This document shows, piece by piece, positions 1,902 through 25,275 of a stretch of 64,000 bases of DNA. The translations under genes were made by a program, and so were the position numbers. Origin of the DNA: a bacterium (GTDB lineage: Bacteria; Patescibacteriota; Dojkabacteria; JAKAPS01); contig JAKAPS010000001.1 in NCBI GenBank assembly GCA_021806925.1, positions 71,040-135,039 on the forward strand. The letters run 5' to 3'. The stretch's first letter is position 1; each line of letters begins with the position of its first letter. The notes below the pieces were generated by a model. The model saw nothing but the letters and a program-made list of their open reading frames with translations. It was not told the DNA's origin and ran no database searches.

Positions 1902-2963
1902 ATGAAAAAGGGATTTTTAATTCTATTAATACAATTCATTTTTGTATTCTTTGTGTTGCAGTTATTTCAAGTAGTATATGCATCGACAATATCAGTATCA
2001 TCGCTTTCATTAAGTGATAATGTGTCTCTTGACTCTTCGGTAACATATTCACTCTCATTTTCAACTGTAACGTCTTCTACATTAACGTCAATCGAAACAG
2101 AATTTGCAACAACAAGTTCAGGAACTATACCTCCAACACATATGAATCTTTCAACTGTATCCCTTGGTGCAATATCAGGTATAACTGGATCAAATTGGAC
2201 ACTTAATTCTACTGATTATACTGCTGGAATTCTGTATGTACAAAATGGTTCAGGACAGAATATACCTGCAAGTACTGATATACAGATTACACTAAATAGT
2301 ATTACAAATCCTGAAGTTGGAGATTGCGGTGGAACATACTATGATACTTGCTATCTTCAGATAACTACTTTTGATGGTGTTACACCTATAGATTCAGGGT
2401 ATGTAAGCTTTGGATTAGAAAGTAATCCACAACTTACATTCAGTTTGTCTAGTATTGGTTCAGGGACAATAGAGAATGGAATAACGACTACAACATCAAC
2501 ATCCATTAGTACTCTGCCCCTTGGTTCAATAGCTCCATATCAATTTGTTGCAGGTAGTTATGAACTTAGTTTAACTACAAATGCCCCAAATGGGTATAGT
2601 ATATATTCATGGCTATCATCACCGCTGATTGGTACATATTATGGAAAGGATATATCGCCTTTTAGTGCAACGGGTGCAAGCTGGACAACACCTGTATCTT
2701 GGACTAGCCCAACTGGTTCTGTTGATGGAACAAATACATGTTGGATAGGTGCAAATACATCTGACACTTCTGTCACTGGTTGGTCAAGTGGTAGCAATCT
2801 ATGGGGTCCACTTGGTTCATCACCTCAACTTATTTCATATTCAAATACATCTGTACTAACTCAGAAGAATATCTTTTTTACAATTGGTCTTGAATGTAAC
2901 GCATTGCAGTCTCCAGATGTCTATTCATCACAACTTAATTTCTCTGTAGTTCCTAGTTATTGA
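1902..2963 (+). CDS. Secreted S/T-rich surface protein; paralog of 14833..15954
   Basis: The ORF-track start is 1872; the more plausible start is 1902 (MKKGFLILLIQFIFVFFVLQLFQVVYAS, a signal peptide). The C-terminal roughly 80 aa (SWTTPVSWTSPTGS...CWIGANTSDTSVTGWSSGSNLWGPL) is clearly homologous to the C-terminus of the 14833..15954 protein (SWATPVAWTAPTGS...FIGANTSDTRVSGWSSPTGKWAPV). Confidence 0.7.
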   Translation: MKKGFLILLIQFIFVFFVLQLFQVVYASTISVSSLSLSDNVSLDSSVTYSLSFSTVTSSTLTSIETEFATTSSGTIPPTHMNLSTVSLGAISGITGSNWTLNSTDYTAGILYVQNGSGQNIPASTDIQITLNSITNPEVGDCGGTYYDTCYLQITTFDGVTPIDSGYVSFGLESNPQLTFSLSSIGSGTIENGITTTTSTSISTLPLGSIAPYQFVAGSYELSLTTNAPNGYSIYSWLSSPLIGTYYGKDISPFSATGASWTTPVSWTSPTGSVDGTNTCWIGANTSDTSVTGWSSGSNLWGPLGSSPQLISYSNTSVLTQKNIFFTIGLECNALQSPDVYSSQLNFSVVPSY

Positions 2964-5292
2964 TGTTATTTCTATAGAATGTACTCGCATTGTTCCATTC
3001 ATTCATTGCTCTGTAGGTGTTTATAACGCCGTTGAAGGCCACTGAACTATTTAAGTTAAGTAGATACGCAGATTCATAATAGCCTAATGCAGTTTTGTAA
3101 TCTCCCATAGAGTAATTAGAATTCGCCATGCTTATATAGTCATTGTATGAATATACATGAACTATATAGTTAGAAGTATATTCATTAATATATTTTTCTG
3201 TTAATGAACCAGTTGAAAGGTAAATACTTTTTAGACGTATAGAATCATATTCATTTAGAAAATCATGTGAGTATTGTTTCAATCCTTCATCAGTCAACAC
3301 TTTTGCGAAGAAAATATCCTCTGTTTCAAAATCTGTATATAGGGATACTTTATTCATGTCAATAATATAAGGATTTACTCCTTTAAGCATAGCGTTGATG
3401 TTTGAGATATTTTTCAAACTACTTGCCAATTCAGTTTTATTAATCTGAGGATTTACAACAACTTTTAATGTATAACCATATGGCACTGTAAAATACGGGT
3501 TACCATACACTCCTATATTTTGTAAATCAGTCTGATCTGGAAAGTATAGGTATATGTTTCTTGTATCTATATTTTTTGCAATCATGTATTTTAATACAGA
3601 TGTATCATCTAGACTTTTTGATGTTAATAACCCAGGATATTTACTTGAATTGAAATAGTGTTCATATTCTGTGATTGATAATGGTATTAAAGTTATATCA
3701 GGTGCTACGTTCTCTACATAATGCTCATAGAACATGGGAAAACACGCAGTATCATTGAAACATATCATTATAGAGTTTTTTGGAAGTGAATTTAAAATAT
3801 ATTTAGAAGAATCACCTAAGAATGTAAAATTCCTATTGTATTCTTCACGTATATTAAAAATGAACAAAACTGGAACTGAAAGTATCAATACAGTTATGCT
3901 TATATATTTCATAGAATTTTTTAAACTGAGCATATTAAAAAAACTAAAGTATTTTGTTTTATTATTGTTTTTAATTACTCCAATTTGTTTTGGGTCATTG
4001 AATTTATTTAATATGTAAGAAATTGTGAAAAAAGACATAATACCAAAAAATATTTCTCCTTGTATATATAGCCTCATCTTTATAGCGATATCTGTATACA
4101 ATGATGCAGTTCCATTTTCAGTGGTGTAATTTACTGGAAAATATCCTCCAACAAGTACATCCGATACAAAAAAATTTGATATGACAAGAATCTCAAATCC
4201 TCTGTTATATATATATTTAAAGATTGAATTTTTCTTAGTATTTTTAAATACTGAATTGTTAATTTGCTCTTTAAAAAATAGGGCAATGATTAAACCTGCA
4301 AAACTAAACACAAAGAATATATTAAAATCCTGCAATAGATATATTAAAAAGTGGTATATCTCTATGAATGAATTCTGAATTGGAAATGTTCCGATATATG
4401 ATGATAGTACACCACTGGTGGTATTCCTTTTATAGTCATTTCTAAAGAAATCATTCACCAATGAATGAATAGAATTTATACTTCCCCAGCCAACAGGAGA
4501 GTTACTATTTGACAATATGAATAAGTACATATATATCAATGAAACTAATATAGAAACTAATAGGATGAATTCAATTAAATAAATAATAAATAGTTTTGTC
4601 CTCTTATTCTTTGGAATGTTTTTAATCCACCCTACGAGCAGGAAAAATAATATTGGTGGAAAAACAACAATACTCTCCTGCTGATTTGCAATCATTGCTG
4701 AAAAAATAACTGCAAAAATTAATATGTAAAAGGAAATACGAATATATTTTCTTCTGTTTTCATCTCTTTCAAATGTGTTAAATAATAGGACTGAAATGAA
4801 TATTAATAAGACAATTAGAAGATTATTCAATGCAAATACTTCAGCAACTGAAGAATATATTGCATAATACAGTGAGAAACCTAATCCAAAAATAGTTAGA
4901 AGTATAGATAAAATGACATTTTTAGAGTTTTGTACTCGTTGTCTGTAATATATGTACACAAGGAGAAAAATTAAACTTAATGTTATTGATGAAAACAGAG
5001 CTGATAATATATTAACCTTGTACGCCTCAGACCAAGGTATATTCTTTAGCAAAATTAACCATACCCTTCCTAGTAGCATATATAAAGGATACCCTGGTTG
5101 GTGAGGATTTCCGTTTGTATATATTGCTGTAAGCATCTCACCATTATCTCCATAGTTTGAAACAGTAACAGGTGCAATTAGTGAATAAAATAGAAAGAAG
5201 AATAAAAATATGCTTATTGAATATATATACATATTCAATTTTTCTATTCTTGTATATTCTCTATTTGTATTTTTTATCGTTTTATTACTCAT
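2953..5292 (-). CDS. Polytopic membrane protein of the DUF2723 / GT-C-like (PMT-like) glycosyltransferase family with C-terminal TPR-like region
   Basis: 779 aa with more than 10 predicted TM helices. N-terminal motif GNPHQPGYPLYMLLG matches the HPPGYP signature of DUF2723. C-terminal soluble part contains TPR-like sequence (DYKTALGYYESAYLLNLNSSVAFNGVINTYRAMNEW). Confidence 0.65.
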   Translation of the reverse strand: MSNKTIKNTNREYTRIEKLNMYIYSISIFLFFFLFYSLIAPVTVSNYGDNGEMLTAIYTNGNPHQPGYPLYMLLGRVWLILLKNIPWSEAYKVNILSALFSSITLSLIFLLVYIYYRQRVQNSKNVILSILLTIFGLGFSLYYAIYSSVAEVFALNNLLIVLLIFISVLLFNTFERDENRRKYIRISFYILIFAVIFSAMIANQQESIVVFPPILFFLLVGWIKNIPKNKRTKLFIIYLIEFILLVSILVSLIYMYLFILSNSNSPVGWGSINSIHSLVNDFFRNDYKRNTTSGVLSSYIGTFPIQNSFIEIYHFLIYLLQDFNIFFVFSFAGLIIALFFKEQINNSVFKNTKKNSIFKYIYNRGFEILVISNFFVSDVLVGGYFPVNYTTENGTASLYTDIAIKMRLYIQGEIFFGIMSFFTISYILNKFNDPKQIGVIKNNNKTKYFSFFNMLSLKNSMKYISITVLILSVPVLFIFNIREEYNRNFTFLGDSSKYILNSLPKNSIMICFNDTACFPMFYEHYVENVAPDITLIPLSITEYEHYFNSSKYPGLLTSKSLDDTSVLKYMIAKNIDTRNIYLYFPDQTDLQNIGVYGNPYFTVPYGYTLKVVVNPQINKTELASSLKNISNINAMLKGVNPYIIDMNKVSLYTDFETEDIFFAKVLTDEGLKQYSHDFLNEYDSIRLKSIYLSTGSLTEKYINEYTSNYIVHVYSYNDYISMANSNYSMGDYKTALGYYESAYLLNLNSSVAFNGVINTYRAMNEWNNASTFYRNNINN

Positions 5293-5349: not shown

Positions 5350-6012
5350 ATGTCTAGAGTTCTTGAGATTAATGTAACAATAAAGAAGAAAAGGATAAAA
5401 AGAAATATATTTTTATTTGTATTTGTTATTTTGACTATTAGTCTTGTTGGTTTTGGAATATATAAAATAATTGAATTCAATAATGAGCAAAGTAAATTAT
5501 TGCAAAGTGACATATCATCAATACAATCAAAACTATATAAATCACCAGGAGTAGATAGCTCCTATATTGAAAATGAAGCTATAAACTCAACGCTTCCATA
5601 CTCTCAAACAACCTGGAAAGTTATAGTTAACAGAGTGTACTATTATCAGATGGAGTACCCTACAAATACAACTGGATTCCAAAAGAATATTGACGGATCA
5701 ACAATATGGTTACTAAGAAGAGATGGATATATATTTAAATTAAATATATTTCAATATAGTGGAACACCAGATCAGTATATAAATTCAATTGAAAATATAG
5801 GTAACTATGCTATATCTAAGACTACATTCAACGGTCAAAGTGCATTAATGTTGACTGATACAAACAATACAGATAAATTCAAAGGAAATGAAATTGTATT
5901 GAAATATAAAGGGAATATGTTTGTTATATGGTTTCTTCAAATTGACAAAAACACACATCCAAATGACTATTTAAGAGAACAAGTTATATTAAGCAATTTT
6001 GGTTTTATTTAG
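5350..6012 (+). CDS. Hypothetical protein with N-terminal membrane anchor
   Basis: 220 aa. Basic N-terminus then one TM helix (IFLFVFVILTISLVGFGIY), remainder predicted extracytoplasmic. No recognisable motif. Confidence 0.45.
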   Translation: MSRVLEINVTIKKKRIKRNIFLFVFVILTISLVGFGIYKIIEFNNEQSKLLQSDISSIQSKLYKSPGVDSSYIENEAINSTLPYSQTTWKVIVNRVYYYQMEYPTNTTGFQKNIDGSTIWLLRRDGYIFKLNIFQYSGTPDQYINSIENIGNYAISKTTFNGQSALMLTDTNNTDKFKGNEIVLKYKGNMFVIWFLQIDKNTHPNDYLREQVILSNFGFI

Positions 6013-7711
6013 GAAGGACATCATCTACGCTTCTTCCAGTTCTCAATCTAGCTGACAATAAATAGAGAATAGCTTTTATCCTTCTAATCATTATGCTGCC
6101 TAGTATCTTTTCATTAGGGTTGACGAAAAATTCCAATACACCTCCTCTTCTTCTTCCTTTCGACAAAGCTCTACATAGAGCGGATGGTGTAATACTTTCT
6201 ACTAAATTAGATGCCTCCCTCGATTGAGGAATAAATGAAAACTGTTCCCCATACATTATTTGAGTGCCCAATGCTAAGATTACATCAATTGGGACTCTTC
6301 TAAATAATTTCTTCATTAAAATACCTAATGCTGATGCCCTATCTTCTTTACTACTAGTAGAAATACGCTTTATTTCTTTATTGCTTAGTCTTCCACAGAA
6401 TAATTTTGAGCTTCTTCTACTGGTACTGTCATATTGGAATATATGGACATACACAGCATAACCAAAATCTGTCATAAGTATTAATGGAATACTATGTCTT
6501 AATGCATATTCATGCAAAAGAGTCATTGCTTCTAGATCATCGACACTGCAGAAAATTACATCTGGTTTTAATGCTTCTATTTCATAAATATTTTTAGCAT
6601 CTATGTTATAAGGATTTGTAATAATATTTGTCATTGGATAGATTCCAGCTATGTACTCTTTCGTTGCAATAACTTTTATTTCACCCACTTTACCTGTACC
6701 AACAGATAACCTAGGTAGATTTGCTTGCCCTACCATTCCACCATCAAATACAGCTAGTTCTGCAACCGGATAGCTTGATAATGCACTCAGAACTCTACTG
6801 CCCACGCTTCCTCCACCAACTACAGTAATTTTTTTCCCTCTAATTATATCACGTTGATAAGATCCTAAACTAATTCCGCGAGATTCAGATAGAAATTGTT
6901 TTACTACAATTTCAAGTTGTCTTTCAAGTTCACCTAGCGTAAGACTATATTCCTGACATCCTGGCTCTAATATACCCCGTTTCATAAGTGAAATTATACC
7001 ATCTATATTTTCTGAAACATATCCCATAACATTTTTTCTCCCTTTATCTCCATATTTATTCCTGTATGGATTGAATTTATCACCTAATTTTCTATTAGGA
7101 TAAACCTTTCTATATAATTCAGTCAAACCATTTCTCCCAATCCAATAAAACGGATATTTTTTTATGAGATTTTTTACTTCATCTAAATCATAATTTAAAT
7201 TACTACCAATAAGTTTTATTTCAAGACCAAGAGATTTAATTATTTCCACAAGCCTTGGTTGGAGTATTGCTGAAACATTAGAATCATTACTCTTTCCTCT
7301 TTCTTTCGATACTTGAACTACCTTAGTAAGTATATATAATAAATTTGCTAATTTAACAACCGGATCCTTAGCTTCTATTGCTAATCCTCCGATTTCTATA
7401 TAATCATAATCCACCCCACTTTTTTCGAAAATACTAGATCCTGGAGAAACACGTGCACATGCATTATTTGTTTTTATAATGATTTCACTATCATTGTAAT
7501 TCCTCACATGTTCTCCAGCACAAAAATCTCTTTGATATAAATTAACTGCAATTGATCCTGGGTCTGTTCTAGTACCTGTTCCAGTTATTTTTTCTAATTC
7601 ACGTTGAAGTTGCAATAGCGATGGATTAGTAGCAGGCGTATAAAAATTTTTGCCTTCTCCTTTTTCTGTAGATAAACTCATTCTACCCTCGCAGTTTATA
7701 CTATATATCAT
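6005..7711 (-). CDS. E1-like / ThiF-MoeB family adenylyltransferase domain protein with roughly 290-aa N-terminal and roughly 120-aa C-terminal extensions
   Basis: 568 aa. Central region KKITVVGGGSVGSRVLSALSSYPVAELAVFDGGMVGQANLPRL is the Rossmann GxGxxG nucleotide-binding motif of E1/ThiF enzymes. Downstream ...KPDVIFCSVDDLEAMTLLHEYALRHSIPLI is consistent with the ThiF fold. The flanking domains match nothing I recognise. Confidence 0.65.
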   Translation of the reverse strand: MIYSINCEGRMSLSTEKGEGKNFYTPATNPSLLQLQRELEKITGTGTRTDPGSIAVNLYQRDFCAGEHVRNYNDSEIIIKTNNACARVSPGSSIFEKSGVDYDYIEIGGLAIEAKDPVVKLANLLYILTKVVQVSKERGKSNDSNVSAILQPRLVEIIKSLGLEIKLIGSNLNYDLDEVKNLIKKYPFYWIGRNGLTELYRKVYPNRKLGDKFNPYRNKYGDKGRKNVMGYVSENIDGIISLMKRGILEPGCQEYSLTLGELERQLEIVVKQFLSESRGISLGSYQRDIIRGKKITVVGGGSVGSRVLSALSSYPVAELAVFDGGMVGQANLPRLSVGTGKVGEIKVIATKEYIAGIYPMTNIITNPYNIDAKNIYEIEALKPDVIFCSVDDLEAMTLLHEYALRHSIPLILMTDFGYAVYVHIFQYDSTSRRSSKLFCGRLSNKEIKRISTSSKEDRASALGILMKKLFRRVPIDVILALGTQIMYGEQFSFIPQSREASNLVESITPSALCRALSKGRRRGGVLEFFVNPNEKILGSIMIRRIKAILYLLSARLRTGRSVDDVLPK

Positions 7712-7819
7712 ACAAAGTCAATAGATAAAGGATATAACCGAGGATGGAGAAAAAATATCAGACTCTTAAGATTTTATAACCACTTAGATAATTGAAATGG
7801 ACATAACAATGCAGTATTA

Positions 7820-10030
7820 TTGTTTTTGTATATGTATTTTCAAATAGTTATTTTGCTACTAACTATGACATATAATTTCTATTTCCTGTATTCTACTAAA
7901 TTCAAAAAAACTGTAATACTTTTTTCGCTATGGGTTTTCTCTACTGAAATAATGTTTTTAATATCATCAATATCATTAAATATTTCTCAATCGACAGTTG
8001 CAATACTATATGAAATAAGATTAGTAATGTTTGTATCAATTATAATGTGTTTTTTATTTTTAATATTCGTTGATTCATTCCCCGATGGTAAAAAAATTTT
8101 ATCAATCAAATACACTATATTAATATCATTCTTTGCAATAGTTTTAGGAACCTTAACTTTGACGCCTTTAATGTTTTACTCCATAAAGATTATAAACGGA
8201 AATGTTATACCAGCATTTTTCCCAACACTTTATATTTTTCCATTATATTTTGTAATGACATTATTTAAGGGATTATACTTATTATATAAGAAGTATAAAT
8301 CATCGTATTTTAACAATAAGATTATTTTAAAAATATTCTTATATTCATTTTCGCTTCTGATTCTTTTTACGTTAATATCTAATTTCTTATTACCTATTTT
8401 CTTCAAATATTCAGACTTGATGCAGCTGGGAAATTTATCAGTATTATTTTTTTTTATTATTACAAGTTACACAGTAATTAGACATCGACTTTTTGATATA
8501 TATTTTGCAATCAGAAACTTCACAATATATTCTTTTGCATTTATTTCAATCTATATACTATTTATTCTTCTTTTCTATATACTAAGGGTAACAGTAATTG
8601 ATGAAAATTTATTAATCTATTCAGCAATAATTGATCTAGTATCATTAATATCTATACCATCCGTAATAAGATTGTCAACAATTATAATGGATAAGATATT
8701 CTTTAAAAGAGCAATATCACAGAAAATAGAAATAGAGAATTTAAATAGAAAAATAAATGAAATAAGGACATTAGATGAAATCTATAAATATATTCCACTT
8801 GAGATTTCTAGATTATTTGGATTCTACAAAATAGAAATCATCAATGATAGTGATTATAGGTTTTTAATTCTCAGTAAATTCTTCAATAATAACAATAATA
8901 ATAATAGAAACATATTATTTTTTACTGAAGATGATTATACAAAATATTCCAATATTACTAGCGAAAAAGATTTAACTGCAATATATCCATTCATAATAAA
9001 CAATGAAGTTAAAAGTTTATTATTAATTTACAATAAAATAACTAAAGAACCTATATACTCTAATGAAGTTTCTATTCTAGAAGATATTTTGAATAGAGTA
9101 TATATATTAATAGTAAATGCCTATTTATATGAAGATATAAAATCCTTTAATGAAAAATTGCAGGACAAAATTAGAAATGCAACATTGAAGTTAACTGCTA
9201 GAAATATAAAATTAAAACATACCCTAAAACATGAGAGGGAAGTCCTAAGACTTGAAAGAGATATGCTTGATATAATGGGACATGAATTAAGGTCCCCTGC
9301 TACAGTAATCAAATTAGCAACATACATGCTTGAAGGTGATATTGGTGCTAACCCATCAACTGGGAAAAATATATCCAGAATAAAAGATTCTGTAGAAAGG
9401 CAGTTAAAATTAATAAACCTATATATAGATATAGCAAAATTTGATAACAAGAGATTAAATCTGACACTATCCCAAATTCATTTAGATAGAATGCTTGAAA
9501 CTTCTGTTGAAGATCATATGGTTGAAGCAATGGAGAAATCTGAAATAAAATTAAGCTATGAAAAACCAGTTACATCAATTCCTATTCTAATTGCTGATTA
9601 CACTAGAATACGTGAAGTTATTGATAACCTAATAAGTAATGCAATCAAATATACATCAAATGGACTTGTAACAGTAGGATGTTCTATTGATGGATCTTAT
9701 GTTAAAGCATATGTAAGAGATACTGGTGAAGGAATCTCTGATGAAGATATAAAGAATGAATTGTTTCAAAAGTTCCATAGAATAGTAAATAAATCAGATA
9801 ATGAATCAGAAGAGAAAATAATTGTAAGACCAGGTGGATCTGGATTAGGTCTATACATATCAAAAGGAATTATAGAATTACACAATGGTAACATATGGGC
9901 TGAAAGTAAACTACATGTTGGGTCAACATTTTTCTTCTCACTTCCAATCCCTTCAAAAGATGAGATTCTAAAATATCCAGAAACCCCAGTTATACAAAAT
10001 AGGAATCCAAACCTATTTAAGAATATGTGA
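7820..10030 (+). CDS. Sensor histidine kinase (multi-TM sensor, HisKA + HATPase_c)
   Basis: 736 aa. N-terminal half has many TM helices. H-box DIMGHELRSPATVI. ATP-binding G-boxes RDTGEGISDED and GGSGLGLYISKGIIELHNGNIWAES. Poly-Asn low-complexity tract (NNNNNNNRN) in the linker. No response regulator adjacent. Confidence 0.8.
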   Translation: MFLYMYFQIVILLLTMTYNFYFLYSTKFKKTVILFSLWVFSTEIMFLISSISLNISQSTVAILYEIRLVMFVSIIMCFLFLIFVDSFPDGKKILSIKYTILISFFAIVLGTLTLTPLMFYSIKIINGNVIPAFFPTLYIFPLYFVMTLFKGLYLLYKKYKSSYFNNKIILKIFLYSFSLLILFTLISNFLLPIFFKYSDLMQLGNLSVLFFFIITSYTVIRHRLFDIYFAIRNFTIYSFAFISIYILFILLFYILRVTVIDENLLIYSAIIDLVSLISIPSVIRLSTIIMDKIFFKRAISQKIEIENLNRKINEIRTLDEIYKYIPLEISRLFGFYKIEIINDSDYRFLILSKFFNNNNNNNRNILFFTEDDYTKYSNITSEKDLTAIYPFIINNEVKSLLLIYNKITKEPIYSNEVSILEDILNRVYILIVNAYLYEDIKSFNEKLQDKIRNATLKLTARNIKLKHTLKHEREVLRLERDMLDIMGHELRSPATVIKLATYMLEGDIGANPSTGKNISRIKDSVERQLKLINLYIDIAKFDNKRLNLTLSQIHLDRMLETSVEDHMVEAMEKSEIKLSYEKPVTSIPILIADYTRIREVIDNLISNAIKYTSNGLVTVGCSIDGSYVKAYVRDTGEGISDEDIKNELFQKFHRIVNKSDNESEEKIIVRPGGSGLGLYISKGIIELHNGNIWAESKLHVGSTFFFSLPIPSKDEILKYPETPVIQNRNPNLFKNM

Positions 10031-10108: not shown

Positions 10109-10324
10109 TTGTGTACAATGTCATATATAAATATGGAAAATAATTCACAAAGCAAAGTATATGTAATAGCAGGAGCAACTGGTGTCATTGTTGCAGCACT
10201 ATTTTATTTAATCGTAAGACATGTATTCTCAGTACATTCAAGAACAATTGACATATTAGTAGGATTAATAGCAGGTGTTGTTGCAGGTGCTATCTACTAT
10301 TTTGTAGTTGGAAAGAAAAAATAA
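10109..10324 (+). CDS. Small two-TM membrane protein (hypothetical)
   Basis: 71 aa with two hydrophobic helices (VYVIAGATGVIVAALFYLIV; ILVGLIAGVVAGAIYYFVV) and a KKK tail. Start may be the internal Met at 10136. Weak support. Confidence 0.35.
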   Translation: MCTMSYINMENNSQSKVYVIAGATGVIVAALFYLIVRHVFSVHSRTIDILVGLIAGVVAGAIYYFVVGKKK

Positions 10325-10352: not shown

Positions 10353-11264
10353 TCAAACAGGATTTCTAGTGGTTTCCGCTGTCTTCCAGATGTGATGGTC
10401 TATCTTCCTTTTATAATCCCTTTTACCTAACCATCTGCTATACATTTCTGTTAGGATTGTAAATATAGTGAAGATAGAGTTTCTTATTGGATGTTTTCTA
10501 AATTCCTTACTAGGAAGAATCTTTTTGAATATTAAAGATATTATCCTTGTTACTCCAAGTGTAGAAACTCTGTAGCTATATTCTTTTTTAGCTGACATAT
10601 GACCTGCGTAAATTCTTCTTCTTTGAGATATGAACTCAGCAACAGTCTCTGGCCCTTTATTCTTAATAATTGCTTTAGGAACATATTTTGCAGTATACCC
10701 TTGCCCTTTTATTAATGCCTCTATATTAACTTCATCTACTGCACTTAAAATAGGGATACCCTCAAATTTTTTTCTAAAACAAATCACCTCACCCATTTTA
10801 GGATCTTTAAGAGATATTTCATGATGCAAAGTCCACATCATCCACACCATATAACCTGTCAACGACTCAGTCTTGTTTACTGGAACAGGGTGAGATCCAG
10901 TTATACCAATTTTCTTATCGAAAAATGGTGAAACTAGATGCTCTATAGTATTTTTTAAAGGAACTGTATCAGCACTTTCAAGAACAACAATATCTTCCTT
11001 CGCTTTTTCAACTAATAGATTGACTGCACTAGCTTTTCCTTTCCTATTTATCTGAGTAATTAATTTTATCCTACTGTCATATCTTGATTCTCTCAATACT
11101 ATTCTATCTGTGTTGTCAGTACTTCCTGAAGAAATTACAATAATTTCTGTAATAGAAACATTCTTCAATTTTTGTTTTTCAATAGCCCTCAAAAGCCTTA
11201 GAATATTACGTTCTTCATTATGAGCTGTTATTCCTACGGAACAATATATTTTTCCTTTTCTCAT
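10353..11264 (-). CDS. Family 2 glycosyltransferase (Dpm1/Ppm1-like polyprenyl-phosphate sugar synthase candidate)
   Basis: 303 aa. GT2 signatures IIVISSGSTDNTD and DIVVLESADTV (DxD-like). Overall GT-A layout. Divergently paired with the DUF2723 gene at 11300. Confidence 0.75.
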   Translation of the reverse strand: MRKGKIYCSVGITAHNEERNILRLLRAIEKQKLKNVSITEIIVISSGSTDNTDRIVLRESRYDSRIKLITQINRKGKASAVNLLVEKAKEDIVVLESADTVPLKNTIEHLVSPFFDKKIGITGSHPVPVNKTESLTGYMVWMMWTLHHEISLKDPKMGEVICFRKKFEGIPILSAVDEVNIEALIKGQGYTAKYVPKAIIKNKGPETVAEFISQRRRIYAGHMSAKKEYSYRVSTLGVTRIISLIFKKILPSKEFRKHPIRNSIFTIFTILTEMYSRWLGKRDYKRKIDHHIWKTAETTRNPV

Positions 11265-11299: not shown

Positions 11300-13597
11300 G
11301 TGAAAAATTATTTGAGTCAACAATCAATTAGGAACATTAGAATAACAAAAAGAAACGTTATTAGTTTTTTCATTTTCTTTTTCGTTCTTGTAATTTATTC
11401 TATTACATTACCACTCCATCATACTGGATTTGCAGACAGTGATGAACTAGCTTTAAGTGGGTACTATCTAGGAGTGGCACATGCACCAGGATATCCAATA
11501 TATATTCTTTTATTGTATATATTTGAACACTTTCTACCTCTAAACATAAGTGTATACTCTAAAGGTGGATTTCTAAATTCTGTCATTTCATCTATCACAC
11601 TTGTGTATTTTTTCAATCTATCACTTGAAATATTTTCTTTCTTAAAAATAAAAAGGGTGAGTGAAAAAGTAAAGAAAAAAAAGTACAGGTTTGTAGATTT
11701 TATTGAAGAAGATACACTTAATGAAGATGTAAAAATATTAATTTCACTTGGCACAACACTCTCATTAGCCTTTAGTCTTCTATTCTGGCTGTATTCAATA
11801 ATTCCTGAAGTGTTTTCTTTCAACAACATGCTAATAACCTTAACACTATTCTTTCTATTAAAAACAACACGATATATATTTTACAAGGATTCCGCAGACT
11901 CACAAAGAAAAAGACGTAATATCGTAGAAATAAATTTATGTTTAACATACATTTTCTTTGTATTAGCAATACTTAATTTACAAACATCTGTTGTCTTAGC
12001 ACCAGTTGTAATTCCATATACAATATATATTCTTATTAAGCTTGGATATTTTAAAGAGATTAGTAAAAAAATATATGTATATATATTTTTTATTCCAATT
12101 ATACTCTACTCTGTATATTCCTTCTTATTGTACATGTATTCAAAATATTCAGTAGCTCCATTATCTTGGTATTTGCAGCCTACAATAGGGAATATTTTTA
12201 AATACTTCATGCGAGAGAATTATATTCAAGCAAGTAGTAATAACGCATATATTCATGCGATTAATTTAGCTGAAATATTTCAACAAATACCACTTTATAT
12301 AAAATATGATTTCTATGGAATAGTAATGATTCCATTAATATTATCATTAATAGGCTTTATATTCCTCTTTTTCAGACATAAAAGGTATTTTTTTCTTATT
12401 GGAGGTTCGTTTCTATGTGCATCTGTATTCCTACCTCTATATATTGGATTTCCGCAGGATAAATCTTCACTGGCAATGTACTTTGGAACTATAGCAACCA
12501 GTCAAAGACAAGATATCTTTGGACTATTGTTCATATATCTATTAGCAGGAATTGGTGTATATTCAATATTTCTTCTATTAAAAAGAATACAAATACAATC
12601 AAAAATATATTCATTTAATATTTCTAAATTAATTCGATACATATTTTACGCAATTGTATTGGTATTTCCAATTCTACTTTTAATAGAAACATATCCTCAA
12701 ACAAATTTGAGAAATTTTAATAGTACCTATGACTTTGCGATAGCATCTATCAATGAAACAAAAGGAAACAGTGTGTTAATTTGCTTCTCTGATATATCAT
12801 GTTTTAGTGATCTGTATGCTGAATATATTGATACTAATGTAAGGAAGATAGAGATAATACCATATAACAACGTTATAACCAGTTCATACTATGAGAAGAA
12901 AGGCATCAAAACGGAGCTTTTTAATTATTCAGAAAATCCATATATATTAGAAGATATACTTTCCTACAACATATACATTAGAAAAAATGTATATGTACAG
13001 GATTTAACTAGCGACTATTTATCATACCTTGGGCTTGATGGTAATGCATATTACCTTATACCAAAAGGATACATCTATCTTGTAAGTGATACAATTCCAA
13101 AGTCAAACACAATACAATTTAATTACAATGTTTCAAAGAGGTACAACCAGTCATTCAACACAAATACAAAAAATTATTGGTTTAGGTCATATGAAGACTA
13201 TCTATCAAAACCAATAACTGAAACCAGTTACCTTTATTGGTTTGAAGGAAATAAGGAACTAGCAATAAGATATGAGAATGAAGCAAAGGCATACGATAAA
13301 TACATAACTCAAGGAGCATATATTTCATCGATAAACGAATACACTACTAAAACAAGTCCATTAACTGCAGGAGATACTACAAGAACAAGTAATGAAGATT
13401 ATCTCCTTGCACTAAGTGATGAAGGCAAATACAATAGTTATGTATTTCCATTAATAAAGTTCTCATTATTAAGAAACCCATATAATCTTCCCGCTAGAGT
13501 CCTTATTCAGAAAATCTATTCAACAAGTGGAACAAACTTCACCCAGGTATCTAAAGAGGAAGAGAATAACATCAAGCAATTACAGAAGGCCTTGTAA
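11300..13597 (+). CDS. Polytopic membrane protein, second DUF2723 / GT-C-like paralog
   Basis: 765 aa. N-terminal motif GVAHAPGYPIYILLLYIF is the same signature as in 2953..5292. Many TM helices, then a roughly 250-aa soluble C-terminal domain. Confidence 0.65.
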   Translation: MKNYLSQQSIRNIRITKRNVISFFIFFFVLVIYSITLPLHHTGFADSDELALSGYYLGVAHAPGYPIYILLLYIFEHFLPLNISVYSKGGFLNSVISSITLVYFFNLSLEIFSFLKIKRVSEKVKKKKYRFVDFIEEDTLNEDVKILISLGTTLSLAFSLLFWLYSIIPEVFSFNNMLITLTLFFLLKTTRYIFYKDSADSQRKRRNIVEINLCLTYIFFVLAILNLQTSVVLAPVVIPYTIYILIKLGYFKEISKKIYVYIFFIPIILYSVYSFLLYMYSKYSVAPLSWYLQPTIGNIFKYFMRENYIQASSNNAYIHAINLAEIFQQIPLYIKYDFYGIVMIPLILSLIGFIFLFFRHKRYFFLIGGSFLCASVFLPLYIGFPQDKSSLAMYFGTIATSQRQDIFGLLFIYLLAGIGVYSIFLLLKRIQIQSKIYSFNISKLIRYIFYAIVLVFPILLLIETYPQTNLRNFNSTYDFAIASINETKGNSVLICFSDISCFSDLYAEYIDTNVRKIEIIPYNNVITSSYYEKKGIKTELFNYSENPYILEDILSYNIYIRKNVYVQDLTSDYLSYLGLDGNAYYLIPKGYIYLVSDTIPKSNTIQFNYNVSKRYNQSFNTNTKNYWFRSYEDYLSKPITETSYLYWFEGNKELAIRYENEAKAYDKYITQGAYISSINEYTTKTSPLTAGDTTRTSNEDYLLALSDEGKYNSYVFPLIKFSLLRNPYNLPARVLIQKIYSTSGTNFTQVSKEEENNIKQLQKAL

Positions 13598-14832: not shown

Positions 14833-15954
14833 CTAGTATGTTGCAACAGCGTTGTACTGTAATGTACCAGTATAAGTGTCAGCTGGTTGGTACACATCAG
14901 TTTCAACCTGATATGTAATATTTACAGTAGTTCCATTATCTGGAGCAGTTGATTCATCCACTGTGTTATAAGTACTGTCTACTGGTGCCCATTTGCCTGT
15001 TGGCGAAGACCAACCAGAAACCCTAGTATCGCTTGTATTAGCACCAATGAATGATGCTGTTGTAGAACCGGGGGTTGTAAGGTTAGATCCTGTAGGTGCC
15101 GTCCACGCAACTGGTGTAGCCCAAGAAGCACTATTAGCTTCAAATGGTTGAAGAACCTTTCCGCTAGTTCCTGTCATGCCTGTTGTCATAGCCATACTGA
15201 CTGTATAACCGCTTAATGCGTTTGTAGTAACAGTAACAGATTGACCAGCCAAGGCTGATTGGTTAGCAGTGATATTTCCGAATGGAAGTGTGTTGTAAGT
15301 TGAAGTAGCAGTTAAAGTACCACCTGATGTGACAGTTCCTGATGCTAAACCAGCAAGAACCATTGTCAAAGCAGGGTCTACAGTAACAGATGCTGTGGTT
15401 GGAGAAACAAGTTCGTATGACGCAGAACCAGAGTCGACTAGTGTTGTTGTTCCTGTATAGGTAGCAACCCTAGCAAAACATGTACCAGTATTTGCATTAC
15501 TGTTTGCTTCTGTACAACCTGATGCACCACCAATCTGTGGGTTAGTAATTGTTTGGAATGCTACTGTAACAGCAGTACTTCCACCCACGACTTGAGGTGT
15601 AGCGTTTGTAATACTCAATTCACCACCTGATGTACTAGCTAATGACCAACCTGTACCTATACCAGTTGTTGTACTCAACGTTGCACTGGTTAGAACTAAT
15701 CCTGTTGGAACTGTAATACCTCCTGATGGAGTAGTAGCGTATTGAAAGTCAATTACATTAAGAGTAGCACTACTTCCTGTTGTAAATGAAAATGTATAGT
15801 TGGATTGTGTTGACGGCTCAGAATTTGACAAAGTAACACTCTTTGATGTTAATGTTCCTGAAGTCGCAAATGCAGGTGCAAGAGGCAGTAAAGCACCAGC
15901 TATCACTAAAGCAACCATTGAAAAAAATTTGGATAATTTCTTAATTATTGTCAT
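14833..15954 (-). CDS. Secreted S/T/G-rich surface protein; paralog of 1902..2963
   Basis: 373 aa. Signal peptide (FFSMVALVIAGALLPLAPAFATSG). Low-complexity T/S/G-rich body. The C-terminal module is homologous to 1902..2963 (SWATPVAWTAPTGS...GANTSDTRVSGWSS). Confidence 0.7.
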   Translation of the reverse strand: MTIIKKLSKFFSMVALVIAGALLPLAPAFATSGTLTSKSVTLSNSEPSTQSNYTFSFTTGSSATLNVIDFQYATTPSGGITVPTGLVLTSATLSTTTGIGTGWSLASTSGGELSITNATPQVVGGSTAVTVAFQTITNPQIGGASGCTEANSNANTGTCFARVATYTGTTTLVDSGSASYELVSPTTASVTVDPALTMVLAGLASGTVTSGGTLTATSTYNTLPFGNITANQSALAGQSVTVTTNALSGYTVSMAMTTGMTGTSGKVLQPFEANSASWATPVAWTAPTGSNLTTPGSTTASFIGANTSDTRVSGWSSPTGKWAPVDSTYNTVDESTAPDNGTTVNITYQVETDVYQPADTYTGTLQYNAVATY

Positions 15955-24081: not shown

Positions 24082-25275
24082 TCACTCAATAATAACATTT
24101 ATCTGACTTCTTCTAAATGGAAGGAATCTAAATATGCTAAACCATACTGGTGATACCTTTATATATACGTATTCAACGCCAGGAATTGATTTAATATAAC
24201 TTGATGCACTTGAAACAGAGTGCTTTACTACATTATTTTTTAAATTATTAACATCAATATTTCTTACCTTTTTTCCAGTTAGAAAAATATCATAAGCAAT
24301 AGAGTTATCTTTAGAATTATATGTTATGTTTTTTATATTATACCCAATAGAGGATATCGTAAATCCATTACCACTTGATTTTTGTAGAAATGAAGTTGCA
24401 TATGCTGTTAAATCACTCGACTTTATATATTTTTCTGTACTTGTTGTTTGAAGTGATAAATTTAATACGCTTGAGCAATCTCCTGGATTATTATCAAAGG
24501 TTTTTTGTGAATCTGTATTAACAATACTACTTGGAAACGATATATCACTTGACTGCAATCCGGCTGATAAATCTGTTTGTGCCTTTTGATACAATTGGTT
24601 CTCAAGAGATTTCAAAAGGTTGTTCTGATCTGTTTGGGTTACACTCTGACATGTTTTTGCATTTCCGCCAGTAAATGAAGATTGATTAGTTATTGTATAT
24701 GATGGAGTTGTTCCATTTTGCCCTGTTGATGAAGCACTTAAAGGTGAAGAACCTACTGCATTAAATTGACTGTTTGCAGGTATGTTACCATTCGCCCCTA
24801 TAGATTCAGCCTGAAATGTTGCATTTGTAACAACCGCACTCGATACAGACGCTGGGATTGTAACGCTTGTCGTTATTGTAAAATTTAACTGGTTTGCACT
24901 ATCAGAAAATACTGATCCAGCTGGAATAGTTATTGAATTTGGGTAGTTTAATGTAGTTATTGATACTTGCCCAGTAGCAGGACTTCCTACAGTACTTGTA
25001 CCTGTTGTATTAAGTGATGAGGATGAATTCTCATTTACTGTATATGTATATACTGGAACAGGCATATTTGTATATTGACCATTTTGAAATGTGGCAACAG
25101 AATTATCTTCAAATGAAAGACTCTTAGAATCAGTTCTAACTTCAATTTGAGCTCTTGGGAAAATATATATTGATACAAAAAGCATTAAAATTAGCACAAT
25201 AATACCTATCCCATACCAAAACTTCAATACTAATTTATTATGTTTATTCCTTTTTAAAGGTGATATTGTATTCAT
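24082..25275 (-). CDS. Hypothetical membrane-anchored extracytoplasmic S/T-rich protein
   Basis: 397 aa with an N-terminal TM anchor (FWYGIGIIVLILMLFVSIYIF) and a T/S/N-rich body. Last gene of the DUF4012 operon before ftsK. Confidence 0.5.
   Translation of the reverse strand: MNTISPLKRNKHNKLVLKFWYGIGIIVLILMLFVSIYIFPRAQIEVRTDSKSLSFEDNSVATFQNGQYTNMPVPVYTYTVNENSSSSLNTTGTSTVGSPATGQVSITTLNYPNSITIPAGSVFSDSANQLNFTITTSVTIPASVSSAVVTNATFQAESIGANGNIPANSQFNAVGSSPLSASSTGQNGTTPSYTITNQSSFTGGNAKTCQSVTQTDQNNLLKSLENQLYQKAQTDLSAGLQSSDISFPSSIVNTDSQKTFDNNPGDCSSVLNLSLQTTSTEKYIKSSDLTAYATSFLQKSSGNGFTISSIGYNIKNITYNSKDNSIAYDIFLTGKKVRNIDVNNLKNNVVKHSVSSASSYIKSIPGVEYVYIKVSPVWFSIFRFLPFRRSQINVIIE

Follow-up and report, generated by a model that had tools for sequence, protein, structure and literature searches.

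In a 64,000-nt stretch of a Dojkabacteria genome (the window; contig JAKAPS010000001.1, positions 71,040 to 135,039), a gene on the reverse strand encodes a protein that joins an E1/ThiF-type adenylation domain to an N-terminal domain of about 260 aa, and the gene beside it, transcribed divergently, encodes a histidine kinase with several transmembrane (TM) segments. Our analysis places the E1 domain near the cyclases TrzS, OxzB and TyzB and finds a histidine kinase to be a regular companion of related E1 genes in bacteria of the Candidate Phyla Radiation (CPR) and in Bacteroidota. We consider it about an even chance (probability roughly 0.5) that the protein is a fused small-molecule synthase that makes a signal and is functionally coupled to the adjoining kinase. 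Residue numbers follow the 568-aa reading frame unless numbering of a 558-aa form is stated.

Extent, fold and active site of the E1 domain

The Pfam family ThiF (PF00899) matched residues 287-426 of the protein (E 8.6e-16, 58.2 bits; gathering cut-off 28.1), and the motifs VVGGGSVGS and ANLPRL are present together with the cysteine contexts FCAGEH and NNACARV, all as described in an earlier note that was made on this DNA from its sequence; the adenylyltransferase core claimed there thus stands. Every residue of the ATP/Mg site (G299, S302, D323, N331, R334, K346, D391), which together stand for GxGxxG, the ribose Asp, the Arg of NLxR, the Lys and the motif Asp, is found in the query and does not vary across the alignment with relatives, and Q496 of a PQ motif, which is invariant across the clade to which we assign the protein, is kept as well.

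The same note had given the E1 signature an extent of about 150 aa and had left the following ~120 aa as a C-terminal region that it could not assign. The signature does lie in the centre of the protein, but the C-terminal region is, by alignments and a structural model, the C-terminal half of the E1 fold and not a separate domain. Many relatives align as far as residue ~520 with leftover lengths that are nearly equal in query and target, profiles of relatives align the query through residues 455-509, and hhalign extends the alignment with relatives, at a probability of 99.7%, to residue 557 of the 558-aa form, so that the region is collinear with the E1 of the closest clade. In an AlphaFold2 (AF2) model computed from the query and 75 E1 relatives, residues 250-558 (558-aa numbering) form one domain with a predicted local distance difference test score (pLDDT) of ~86-97. 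Because the C-terminal region belongs to this fold, the E1 domain covers ~295 aa (residues ~273-568). The FxGR motif of the domain, LFCGRLS at residues 437-443, straddles the boundary between the Rossmann subdomain and the C-terminal half. Cysteines occur at positions 7, 64, 85, 252, 388, 439 and 513; C439, in LFCGR, is the only one in the crossover region, and since its alignment column is variable it is not a candidate catalytic cysteine.

A Foldseek search of the PDB with the E1 model returned generic E1-like structures, led by AclA (9egb; E 2.4e-12, target TM-score 0.78), PaaA, SUMO E1, ThiF and MccB. The protein could accordingly be an E1-like enzyme of the kind that modifies ribosomally synthesised and post-translationally modified peptides (RiPPs), as MccB, PaaA and AclA do; its N-domain would then clamp a short precursor peptide, and adenylation of a carboxylate at the C-terminus or on a side chain of that peptide would precede cyclisation or ligation. 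This would agree with the rank of these three enzymes among the top structural matches, with the N-terminal peptide-binding domain that MccB-type enzymes bear (PMC12596934), and with an N-domain whose identity leaves room for such a clamp. We nevertheless regard it as distinctly unlikely, since SUMO E1, ThiF and MoeB structures score almost as high as AclA, PaaA and MccB, by sequence the protein sides with the TrzS/OxzB clade and not with MccB or PaaA, no precursor-like small open reading frame (ORF), transporter or immunity gene is adjacent, and the conserved partners of the relatives are a kinase and an acyl-forming enzyme, not a peptide.

The nearest relatives are N-acyl-amino acid cyclases

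TrzS (Rv1355c), TyzB and OxzB have been shown experimentally to be ATP-dependent cyclases that act on N-acyl-amino acids (PMC12856293, PMC10404671, PMC12596934, bioRxiv 10.1101/2020.06.11.147165). Cyclases of this clade adenylate the carboxylate of the N-acyl-amino acid with ATP, and attack by the amide oxygen closes the oxazolone ring. TrzS turns N-acyl-Trp, the product of the acyltransferase TrzA (Rv1356c), into N-acyl-tryptazolone, and the exchange D217A in its ThiF adenylation motif abolished cyclisation (PMC12856293). TyzA, TyzB and TyzC are an acyltransferase, a ThiF cyclase as well as a flavin-dependent oxidase (FDO), respectively; the Tyz and OxzA/OxzB enzymes carry out the corresponding reactions with Tyr or Phe, and the acyltransferases of the two systems, TyzA and OxzA, adopt a LuxI/FeeM-like fold (PMC10404671; bioRxiv 10.1101/2020.06.11.147165; PMC12596934). 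The papers that discovered bacterial N-acyl-oxazolones describe their biological role as unknown and go no further than speculation about signalling (bioRxiv 10.1101/2020.06.11.147165; PMC12856293).

An exhaustive phmmer search of the query against 1.84 billion representative proteins gave 663 matches at E<=1e-3 and 6 at E<=1e-10, every alignment falling inside residues ~230-530, while a word-indexed search recovered only the protein itself. The NCBIfam model PRK07877 ('Rv1355c family protein') is matched by 32 of the 40 best database relatives, single relatives reaching 150-276 bits on its N-terminal half (positions ~5-350 of 722). Local profiles built from 45 short and 15 long relatives scored the query at 146 and 155 bits, respectively, over residues 275-509. 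Moreover, the motifs that follow the Rossmann fold in the query, PL(I/L)xxTDxG...YD...FxGRxS and PQ, are common to the clade and absent from canonical ThiF/MoeB. These comparisons indicate that the query is closest to the ThiF-like half of the Rv1355c/TrzS-OxzB family and not to Cap2, to enzymes activating ubiquitin-like proteins (Ubls) or to MoeB/ThiF enzymes; as far as sequence can tell, it is a basal, long-branch and highly divergent member of the clade. Two sister sequences, P0006 and P0009 (locus L010), keep the canonical GxGSVG spacing as the query does, and the L010 E1 has the same long C-terminal helix; identity between the query and these sister E1s is only ~22-25%. The E1 domain is thus a known type of enzyme in strongly divergent form, and the label 'orphan' that the earlier note gave to the whole protein, not supported for the E1 part, is fitting for its N-domain, for which we found no homologue.

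Other E1 families fitted less well. All NCBIfam models of MoeB, ThiF and MoeZ scored the query far below their cut-offs (48 vs 159, 47 vs 275, etc.), as did the SAMP-E1 model and that of TcdA (18 bits vs a cut-off of 304), and nothing beyond domain lengths spoke for an Atg7-like architecture of N-terminal domain plus E1. The query has no CxxC Zn-binding pairs and no rhodanese, and the 64-kb window holds no ThiS/MoaD-like ORF ending in GG. No MoeB/MoeZ accessory domain, tRNA-modification enzyme or operon for molybdenum cofactor or thiamin synthesis was found, so that the features which the note had named as telling against its reading did not turn up. Relatives carry the label 'molybdopterin/thiamine biosynthesis adenylyltransferase', a likely mis-annotation that the present assignment corrects.

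The note had also drawn an analogy to Cap2, an E2-E1 fusion of the cyclic-oligonucleotide-based antiphage signalling system (CBASS), and to other bacterial ubiquitin-like conjugation or defence enzymes. A protein of this kind would be similar in length and layout (N-terminal ~290 aa, then E1), and both PADLOC E1-E2 profiles and Cap2 structures match the query. All 28 of these profiles, however, align only within residues ~261-421 and match nothing but the Rossmann core (~288-420), at <=46 bits, and the PDB sequence matches to SAE2, Cap2 and Uba4 (E ~1e-3) are likewise confined to the core. No PADLOC or Pfam match, and thus no signal of an E2-like fold with a catalytic cysteine, was obtained in residues 1-260. 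As the note had already observed, no Ubl, E2, JAB or CD-NTase gene lies among the neighbours scanned, nor is there a Cap3 or effector gene. Among ORFs of 40-200 aa across the 64-kb window, not one has GG as its last two residues or placed up to 6 residues from the C-terminus. Together with the variable crossover cysteine and a nearest clade that works on small molecules, this largely refutes the analogy and leaves it very improbable.

A histidine kinase accompanies the E1 gene in related loci

The contexts of the nearest relatives were taken from metagenomes and from 22 GTDB genomes, which were retrieved with a four-sequence E1 alignment, and the loci were annotated with local profiles of the E1, the kinase sensor half, the kinase core, the receiver and a protein family designated X. 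A histidine kinase lies at most two genes from the E1 gene in 28 of 28 distinct non-actinobacterial (CPR or Bacteroidota) loci with enough flank. These kinases are of the multi-TM (7TM) type wherever the sensor half could be scored, and a receiver protein is usually present as well. The neighbours named in the earlier note, a small membrane protein (220 aa, with a TM segment) and a histidine kinase, were both confirmed, but the kinase is not the unconnected 'orphan' that it was taken for: since all 28 related loci carry one and the window kinase has the same architecture, the comparison points to a partner of the E1 and not to an incidental neighbour. The survey of homologue neighbourhoods that the note had proposed with ubiquitin-like and JAB genes in mind turned up, as conserved partners, a histidine kinase and an acyl-forming enzyme.

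The window kinase aligned with the kinases of these modules in a single high-scoring segment pair over essentially its full length (E 1e-38 to 1e-56). Its sensor half alone reached 47 bits with a three-sequence profile, all 200 shuffles being negative, and where its TM bundle ends the window kinase has the '...RHRLFDI' motif of the module kinases. Identity is 41% to the kinase of locus L010 over 105 residues of the TM region and 32% to that of L039 over 351 aa.

The gene order divergent response regulator (RR), X (~270-310 aa), E1 and multi-TM kinase was found in all 11 loci L014-L024, nine of them titled Saccharibacteria or Saccharimonadales, and again in the metagenome loci L003, L004, L006, L008 and L012. 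FolD often lies upstream of the Saccharibacteria cassette. Bacteroidota loci have an Rv1355c-type protein or an E1, then a 230-260-aa protein, W, then a kinase core and a receiver; a full-length Rv1355c-family protein (627 bits) is encoded in L029 and a shorter E1 in the other loci of this set (L029, L031-L033). The link between E1 and kinase therefore reaches beyond the CPR. In the sister loci L039-41 the E1 gene is followed by the gene of a 279-aa protein, V, and then by that of a 750-aa kinase, while the L010 genes for the kinase and a 267-aa V run divergently from the E1 gene. Next to these genes, the sister loci (L039-L041, L010) encode a 748-aa ATPase of the DUF8128/DUF87/TrwB type as well as an HTH_3 regulator, in two different arrangements.

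Some loci were seen in part: contigs end at the E1 gene in Roizmanbacteria L030 and Flavobacteriales L034, with downstream genes out of view, and in Microgenomates L035 only the 3' part of the E1 gene is visible, immediately followed by a kinase. A separate FDO is added in some loci (L002, L027), the L027 protein matching the C-terminal half of PRK07877 at 183 bits. Homologues on actinobacterial plasmids are without a kinase and stand beside a GGDEF protein or a LuxR-type regulator. On a short contig, a 230-aa multi-TM protein precedes the top-scoring E1 match P0002 (268 aa; L042:460-1152); it resembles the 7TM sensor of the module kinases and is without a kinase domain. In the literature that could be searched we found no description of the E1-kinase module, the terms 'histidine kinase' and 'two-component' being absent from the two papers in which they were looked for, and none of the Saccharibacteria cassette of RR, X, E1 and 7TM kinase.

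Acyl-forming partners of the related E1 proteins

Fusions of X to the E1 occur in six loci (L003, L008, L012, L016, L017, L020), and ten proteins from the database, 637-713 aa long, have the same build. An AF2 model of one such fusion, P0021, computed with a multiple sequence alignment (MSA) of 34 sequences, had a mean pLDDT of 91.6, and its X domain (residues ~20-277) runs β1-α1-β2-β3-(αα)-β4-α3-β5-α4-hairpin-β-α. Foldseek of the fusion against a viral library (BFVD) returned, after E1-like proteins, GNAT acetyltransferases of ~150 aa with probability 1.00 and target TM-scores of 0.62-0.68. From these matches X (~280 aa) is predicted to be a GNAT-fold protein in the position of OxzA, TrzA or TyzA. 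Against the PDB, E1 matches saturated the Foldseek list and the X domain was not visible in it; a search of PDB sequences with the X-family profile gave nothing meaningful, and word-indexed searches with X and its family profile returned essentially X itself or very close relatives. One Saccharibacteria genome carries two tandem X genes ahead of the E1 (L015:4183-5975), which suggests duplication and divergence of the acyltransferase partner. Between X and the Rossmann fold, the clade has an N-extension of ~115 aa with a conserved 'GxWxxFPW...LVR' motif, for which the P0021 model (~295-420) gives, with high confidence, the order beta-alpha-beta-alpha(alpha)-beta-beta-alpha, resembling a thioredoxin topology.

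In the Patescibacteria loci L002, L025, L026 and L028 and in Roizmanbacteria L030, the place of X is taken by Y, a protein of ~500 aa that is a PaaK/F390-synthetase-like adenylate-forming ligase (TIGR02155, E 5e-13 to 3e-18). Its occurrence in place of a GNAT protein implies an alternative route to the acyl-amide substrate. In L028 an alpha/beta hydrolase gene lies between E1 and kinase. W of the Bacteroidota looks GNAT-like by eye. No significant family was assigned to the query N-domain or to X, V and W in Pfam, NCBIfam and PHROGs, and hhalign comparisons of X with W, of W with the query, and of Rhodococcus and Kitasatospora neighbours with X were non-significant; the hypothetical protein encoded beside a Rhodococcus Rv1355c gene did not qualify as a reference for TrzA.

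A Kitasatospora plasmid encodes a 616-aa protein that combines a sub-threshold GNAT match (Acetyltransf_7/5/1) with the N-extension and a clade E1 (L038, NZ_CP108248.1 420884-423768), and this locus is an actinobacterial variant of the acyl-amino-acid/oxazolone-type cluster. A gene for ketoacyl synthase III (KAS III) is next to the fusion and a LuxR-type regulator is nearby; the protein is annotated only as 'ThiF family adenylyltransferase'.

A fused synthase coupled to the kinase is the favoured explanation

Building on the fold, the ATP site, the clade affinity and the kinase linkage, we infer a substrate, a product, a role of the N-domain and a direction of the kinase link. The N-domain would supply or bind the substrate, in the favoured version as a degenerate GNAT-type N-acyltransferase like the fused X of Saccharibacteria, and the E1 domain would adenylate the carboxylate of a small acyl-amino-acid-like compound, which the same enzyme would then cyclise or transfer. 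As no FDO is present, one would expect as product an azlactone-type compound, saturated and prone to hydrolysis, or else some other acyl-amino acid in activated or cyclised form. The 7TM kinase might either sense this lipid-like product as a signal or control its synthesis. A self-contained fusion, as the earlier note had put forward for an unspecified substrate, is plausible in view of an intact ThiF domain and a large N-terminal module in one polypeptide; that the chemistry is specifically that of oxazolones is rather doubtful.

Several observations weigh against this explanation. With PRK07877, the full equivalog model for Rv1355c, the query reached no more than 21 bits (cut-off 476), generic ThiF models scored it higher (47-48 bits), and a neighbour-joining tree put it just outside the core clade, in a basal position. 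A profile search of the whole 64-kb window found no homologue of the receiver (RR), X, Y, W or FDO/nitroreductase, so that the canonical oxazolone pathway is incomplete there; nor did any window neighbour match a nitroreductase family of Pfam. The link between E1 and kinase is guilt by association, and in the window the two genes are divergent, not co-directional. As to a GNAT-type N-domain, AF2 with an E1-only MSA gave residues 1-250 a pLDDT <50, HMMER detected no X signal and no Pfam GNAT match in the query N-domain, hhalign of the N-domain with X/V reached a probability of ~1% and P ~0.05, below standard significance, and a competing glutaredoxin (Grx) similarity falls on the same residues, neither lead appearing significant by sequence comparison.

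The N-terminal domain

The N-terminal ~260 aa matched none of the 1.84 billion proteins in the exhaustive phmmer search, all alignments lying in the E1 part, so that the domain is without a detectable homologue; the earlier note was right in leaving this large region unassigned. hhalign found no significant alignment to the clade N-extension either, which the query lacks. The hhalign alignment with X/V is collinear, and its strongest segment is always the GNAT β4-α3-β5-α4-β6 core against query residues 95-178 (558-aa numbering). Shuffled sequences reached the real score in 29 of 2000 cases with the X profile and in 1 of 2000 with the X+V profile, which corresponds to an empirical P of about 0.001-0.015, residue shuffling being a lenient null.

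The only PDB sequence matches of the N-domain were five glutaredoxin/NrdH proteins from two subfamilies (E 0.07-1.4, residues 45-114 in 558-aa numbering), which place their active-site cysteine at C85, whereas the reversed and shuffled N-domain controls gave 0, 1 and 1 unrelated matches at E ~1. On these grounds the protein might be a sulfur or redox adenylyltransferase with a degenerate thioredoxin-fold module, in which C85 takes the acyl group as a thioester or relays sulfur or reducing equivalents, comparable to the rhodanese fusions MoeZ and Uba4. The E-values are borderline, the alignments cover only the first half of the fold (beta1-alpha1-beta2-alpha2), the CxxC motif is reduced to C-A-R-V, and the Pfam Glutaredoxin family does not match; further, the query has no Zn CxxC pairs of the MoeB/ThiF kind and no rhodanese, the window encodes no ThiS/MoaD-like GG protein, and relatives have no such domain, all of which renders this enzyme type improbable. 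The GNAT and Grx leads cannot both hold where they meet, because both claim 'YIEIGGLAI'. We weight the GNAT reading above the Grx one since the fusion precedents give it contextual support: a GNAT N-domain is a tentative assignment, somewhat short of an even chance, and a glutaredoxin-like one is unlikely. The N-domain may represent a fold of its own, new to science, or an acyltransferase that has diverged to an extreme degree.

It might also be that the protein is a decaying or neofunctionalised remnant, in which the E1 is kept and what remains of a former partner gene, evolving fast and possibly unstructured, makes up the N-terminal region and plays no part in catalysis. A singleton domain without homologue and with low AF2 confidence over residues 1-250 would look like this, as would the absence of the accessory RR and FDO genes from the window, and CPR genomes are reductive. 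Yet the E1 active site is fully intact, the N-region is not of low complexity and is predicted to contain helices and strands, an identical protein occurs on several independent contigs, and we infer that 260 stop-free codons at 30% GC would be very unlikely without selection. A relic is thus improbable, and we retain the fused synthase as the favoured explanation.

Implications of the E1-kinase linkage

The linkage of the clade to kinases outside Actinobacteria and Proteobacteria, in Saccharibacteria, other CPR lineages and Bacteroidota, bears on the role of these compounds: with multi-TM kinases and receivers repeatedly at hand, the role of oxazolones becomes a testable producer-receptor hypothesis. 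It would go further, and is in our estimation a long shot, to propose that CPR and some Bacteroidota own an unrecognised autoinducer-like system, in which an acyl-former (X of the GNAT type, Y of the PaaK type or the N-domain of the window protein) and a ThiF-like cyclase make a labile heterocycle of the oxazolone or azlactone type from an N-acyl-amino acid, to be sensed directly by the adjoining 7TM kinase. If so, oxazolone lipids would gain a long-sought signalling role, and the protein of the window would be the most compact version of the system, with synthase and cyclase in one polypeptide and a novel N-terminal fold; ultra-small bacteria would then be seen to communicate chemically, from cell to cell or between host and symbiont. 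CPR bacteria are obligate episymbionts with tiny genomes, which would make a small-molecule signalling cassette conserved in them notable.

Gene, start site and neighbouring genes

The E1 gene is an uninterrupted ORF (Table 1). The length of 568 aa given in the earlier note is that of the ORF; the true start is probably the ATG at 7681 (M11), which a GAGGG Shine-Dalgarno sequence 4 nt upstream and a public gene call of 558 aa favour. A promoter-like sequence, TTGACT-17-TAAACT, lies at 7721-7693, and transcription from there would begin downstream of the ATG at 7711; as an argument for M11 this is weak because such matches are not above chance in the AT-rich region. In NCBI, ENA and Logan assemblies, four contigs or more encode an identical protein, which rules out an artefact of a single assembly.

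Table 1. Features of the E1 gene and its surroundings (positions in the window).
Feature	Position	Strand	Remarks
Whole ORF of the E1 gene	6005..7711	-	568 codons plus stop; probable coding sequence 6005-7681, 558 aa, start M11
C-terminal half of the E1 domain	6008..6391	-	residues 441-568; PQ (Q496); ends in a long helix
First E1 helix and E1/ThiF Rossmann adenylation subdomain	6392..6895	-	ATP-site residues all conserved
N-terminal domain, ~260 aa	6896..7681	-	residues 11-272; position of X in X-E1 fusions; no homologue detected
GNAT-core-like stretch	7148..7399	-	residues ~105-188, 'YIEIGGLAI...VSAILQPRLVEIIKSLG'; weak match to GNAT beta4-alpha3-beta5-alpha4-beta6 of X, V
Glutaredoxin/NrdH-like stretch, borderline	7340..7549	-	residues ~55-124; first Grx CxxC cysteine against C85 of NNACARV; second cysteine absent
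Divergent intergenic region, E1 gene / histidine-kinase gene	7682..7831	.	AT-rich; promoter-like hexamers on both strands, not above chance
Multi-TM sensor histidine kinase	7820..10030	+	gene call from 7832, 732 aa; 7-TM-type sensor, middle domain, HisKA, HATPase_c
Small two-TM ORF downstream of the kinase	10109..10324	+	68-71 aa; not Ubl-like

The small two-TM ORF comes immediately after the kinase gene; L004 and L012 likewise have small ORFs behind the kinase, there on the opposite strand. The membrane-protein gene at 5350-6012 (+) converges on the E1 gene, their 3' ends overlapping by 8 nt; its single-TM product matched no family and gave only a holin-like (0.19) and a CARF_TM-like (0.002) whisper.

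The window has 30% GC and a CPR/Patescibacteria-type look, with MetRS, FtsK, TatD and TMEM260-like glycosyltransferases. Two large glycosyltransferases of this TMEM260-like sort, membrane proteins of the PMT type, flank the E1/kinase pair together with a GT2 at 2953-5292 (-), 10353-11264 (-) and 11300-13597 (+). Ser/Thr-rich secreted or anchored proteins are encoded nearby (724-1659, 1872-2963, 14833-15954) and could be glycoprotein substrates of these glycosyltransferases. Between FtsK and cell-division-type genes (FtsA/PilM-like, AAA ATPase), an odd place for a phage-baseplate-like protein, the gene at 24082-25275 (-) encodes 397 aa with weak similarity to Baseplate_J (E 6.6e-06).

Comparison with known systems

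With TrzS, OxzB and TyzB the query shares the Rossmann fold and the C-terminal half of the clade (TDxG/YD/FxGR/PQ), and its motif Asp is of the kind that was exchanged in TrzS D217A (PMC12856293). It differs from them in having no fused or adjacent flavin-dependent oxidase (nitroreductase), in keeping the canonical GxGxxG spacing without the ~115-aa N-extension, in adding the orphan 260-aa N-domain, and in being paired with a histidine kinase and not with c-di-GMP genes. CBASS Cap2 and eukaryotic-type E1s have the E1 Rossmann core and a similar length in common with the query, but matches to them are limited to ~130 residues, and an E2 domain, a catalytic-Cys domain and a Ubl or CD-NTase partner are lacking. 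In structure the query E1 is matched best by MccB, PaaA and AclA, stand-alone bacterial E1-like adenylating enzymes that have additional modules for substrate binding at the N-terminus; at the sequence level it has no affinity to their clade, and no precursor peptide or RiPP context goes with it.

Similar in layout are the modules of X-E1 or of X, E1, 7TM kinase and RR that we define here for Saccharibacteria (such as P0021, P0003, L014-L024): as in the query, a ~270-290-aa N-module precedes an E1 of the same broad clade and a kinase of like multi-TM architecture adjoins, whereas X is not detectable by HMMER in the query, the N-extension is missing, the kinase is divergent and not downstream, and no receiver is nearby. 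The sister sequences from low-GC genomes, P0006 (GCA_027425375.1; L039-41) and P0009 (L010), have GxGSVG, D(F/I/L)GxxV...(Y/F)(D/Q)Y, FxG(R/K) and PQ as the query does. They, too, have a ~270-aa partner, V, and a multi-TM kinase adjacent, with the difference that V is a separate gene, unlike the N-domain of the query, and that a DUF87/TrwB-type ATPase and an HTH_3 regulator are linked to them, unlike the locus described here.

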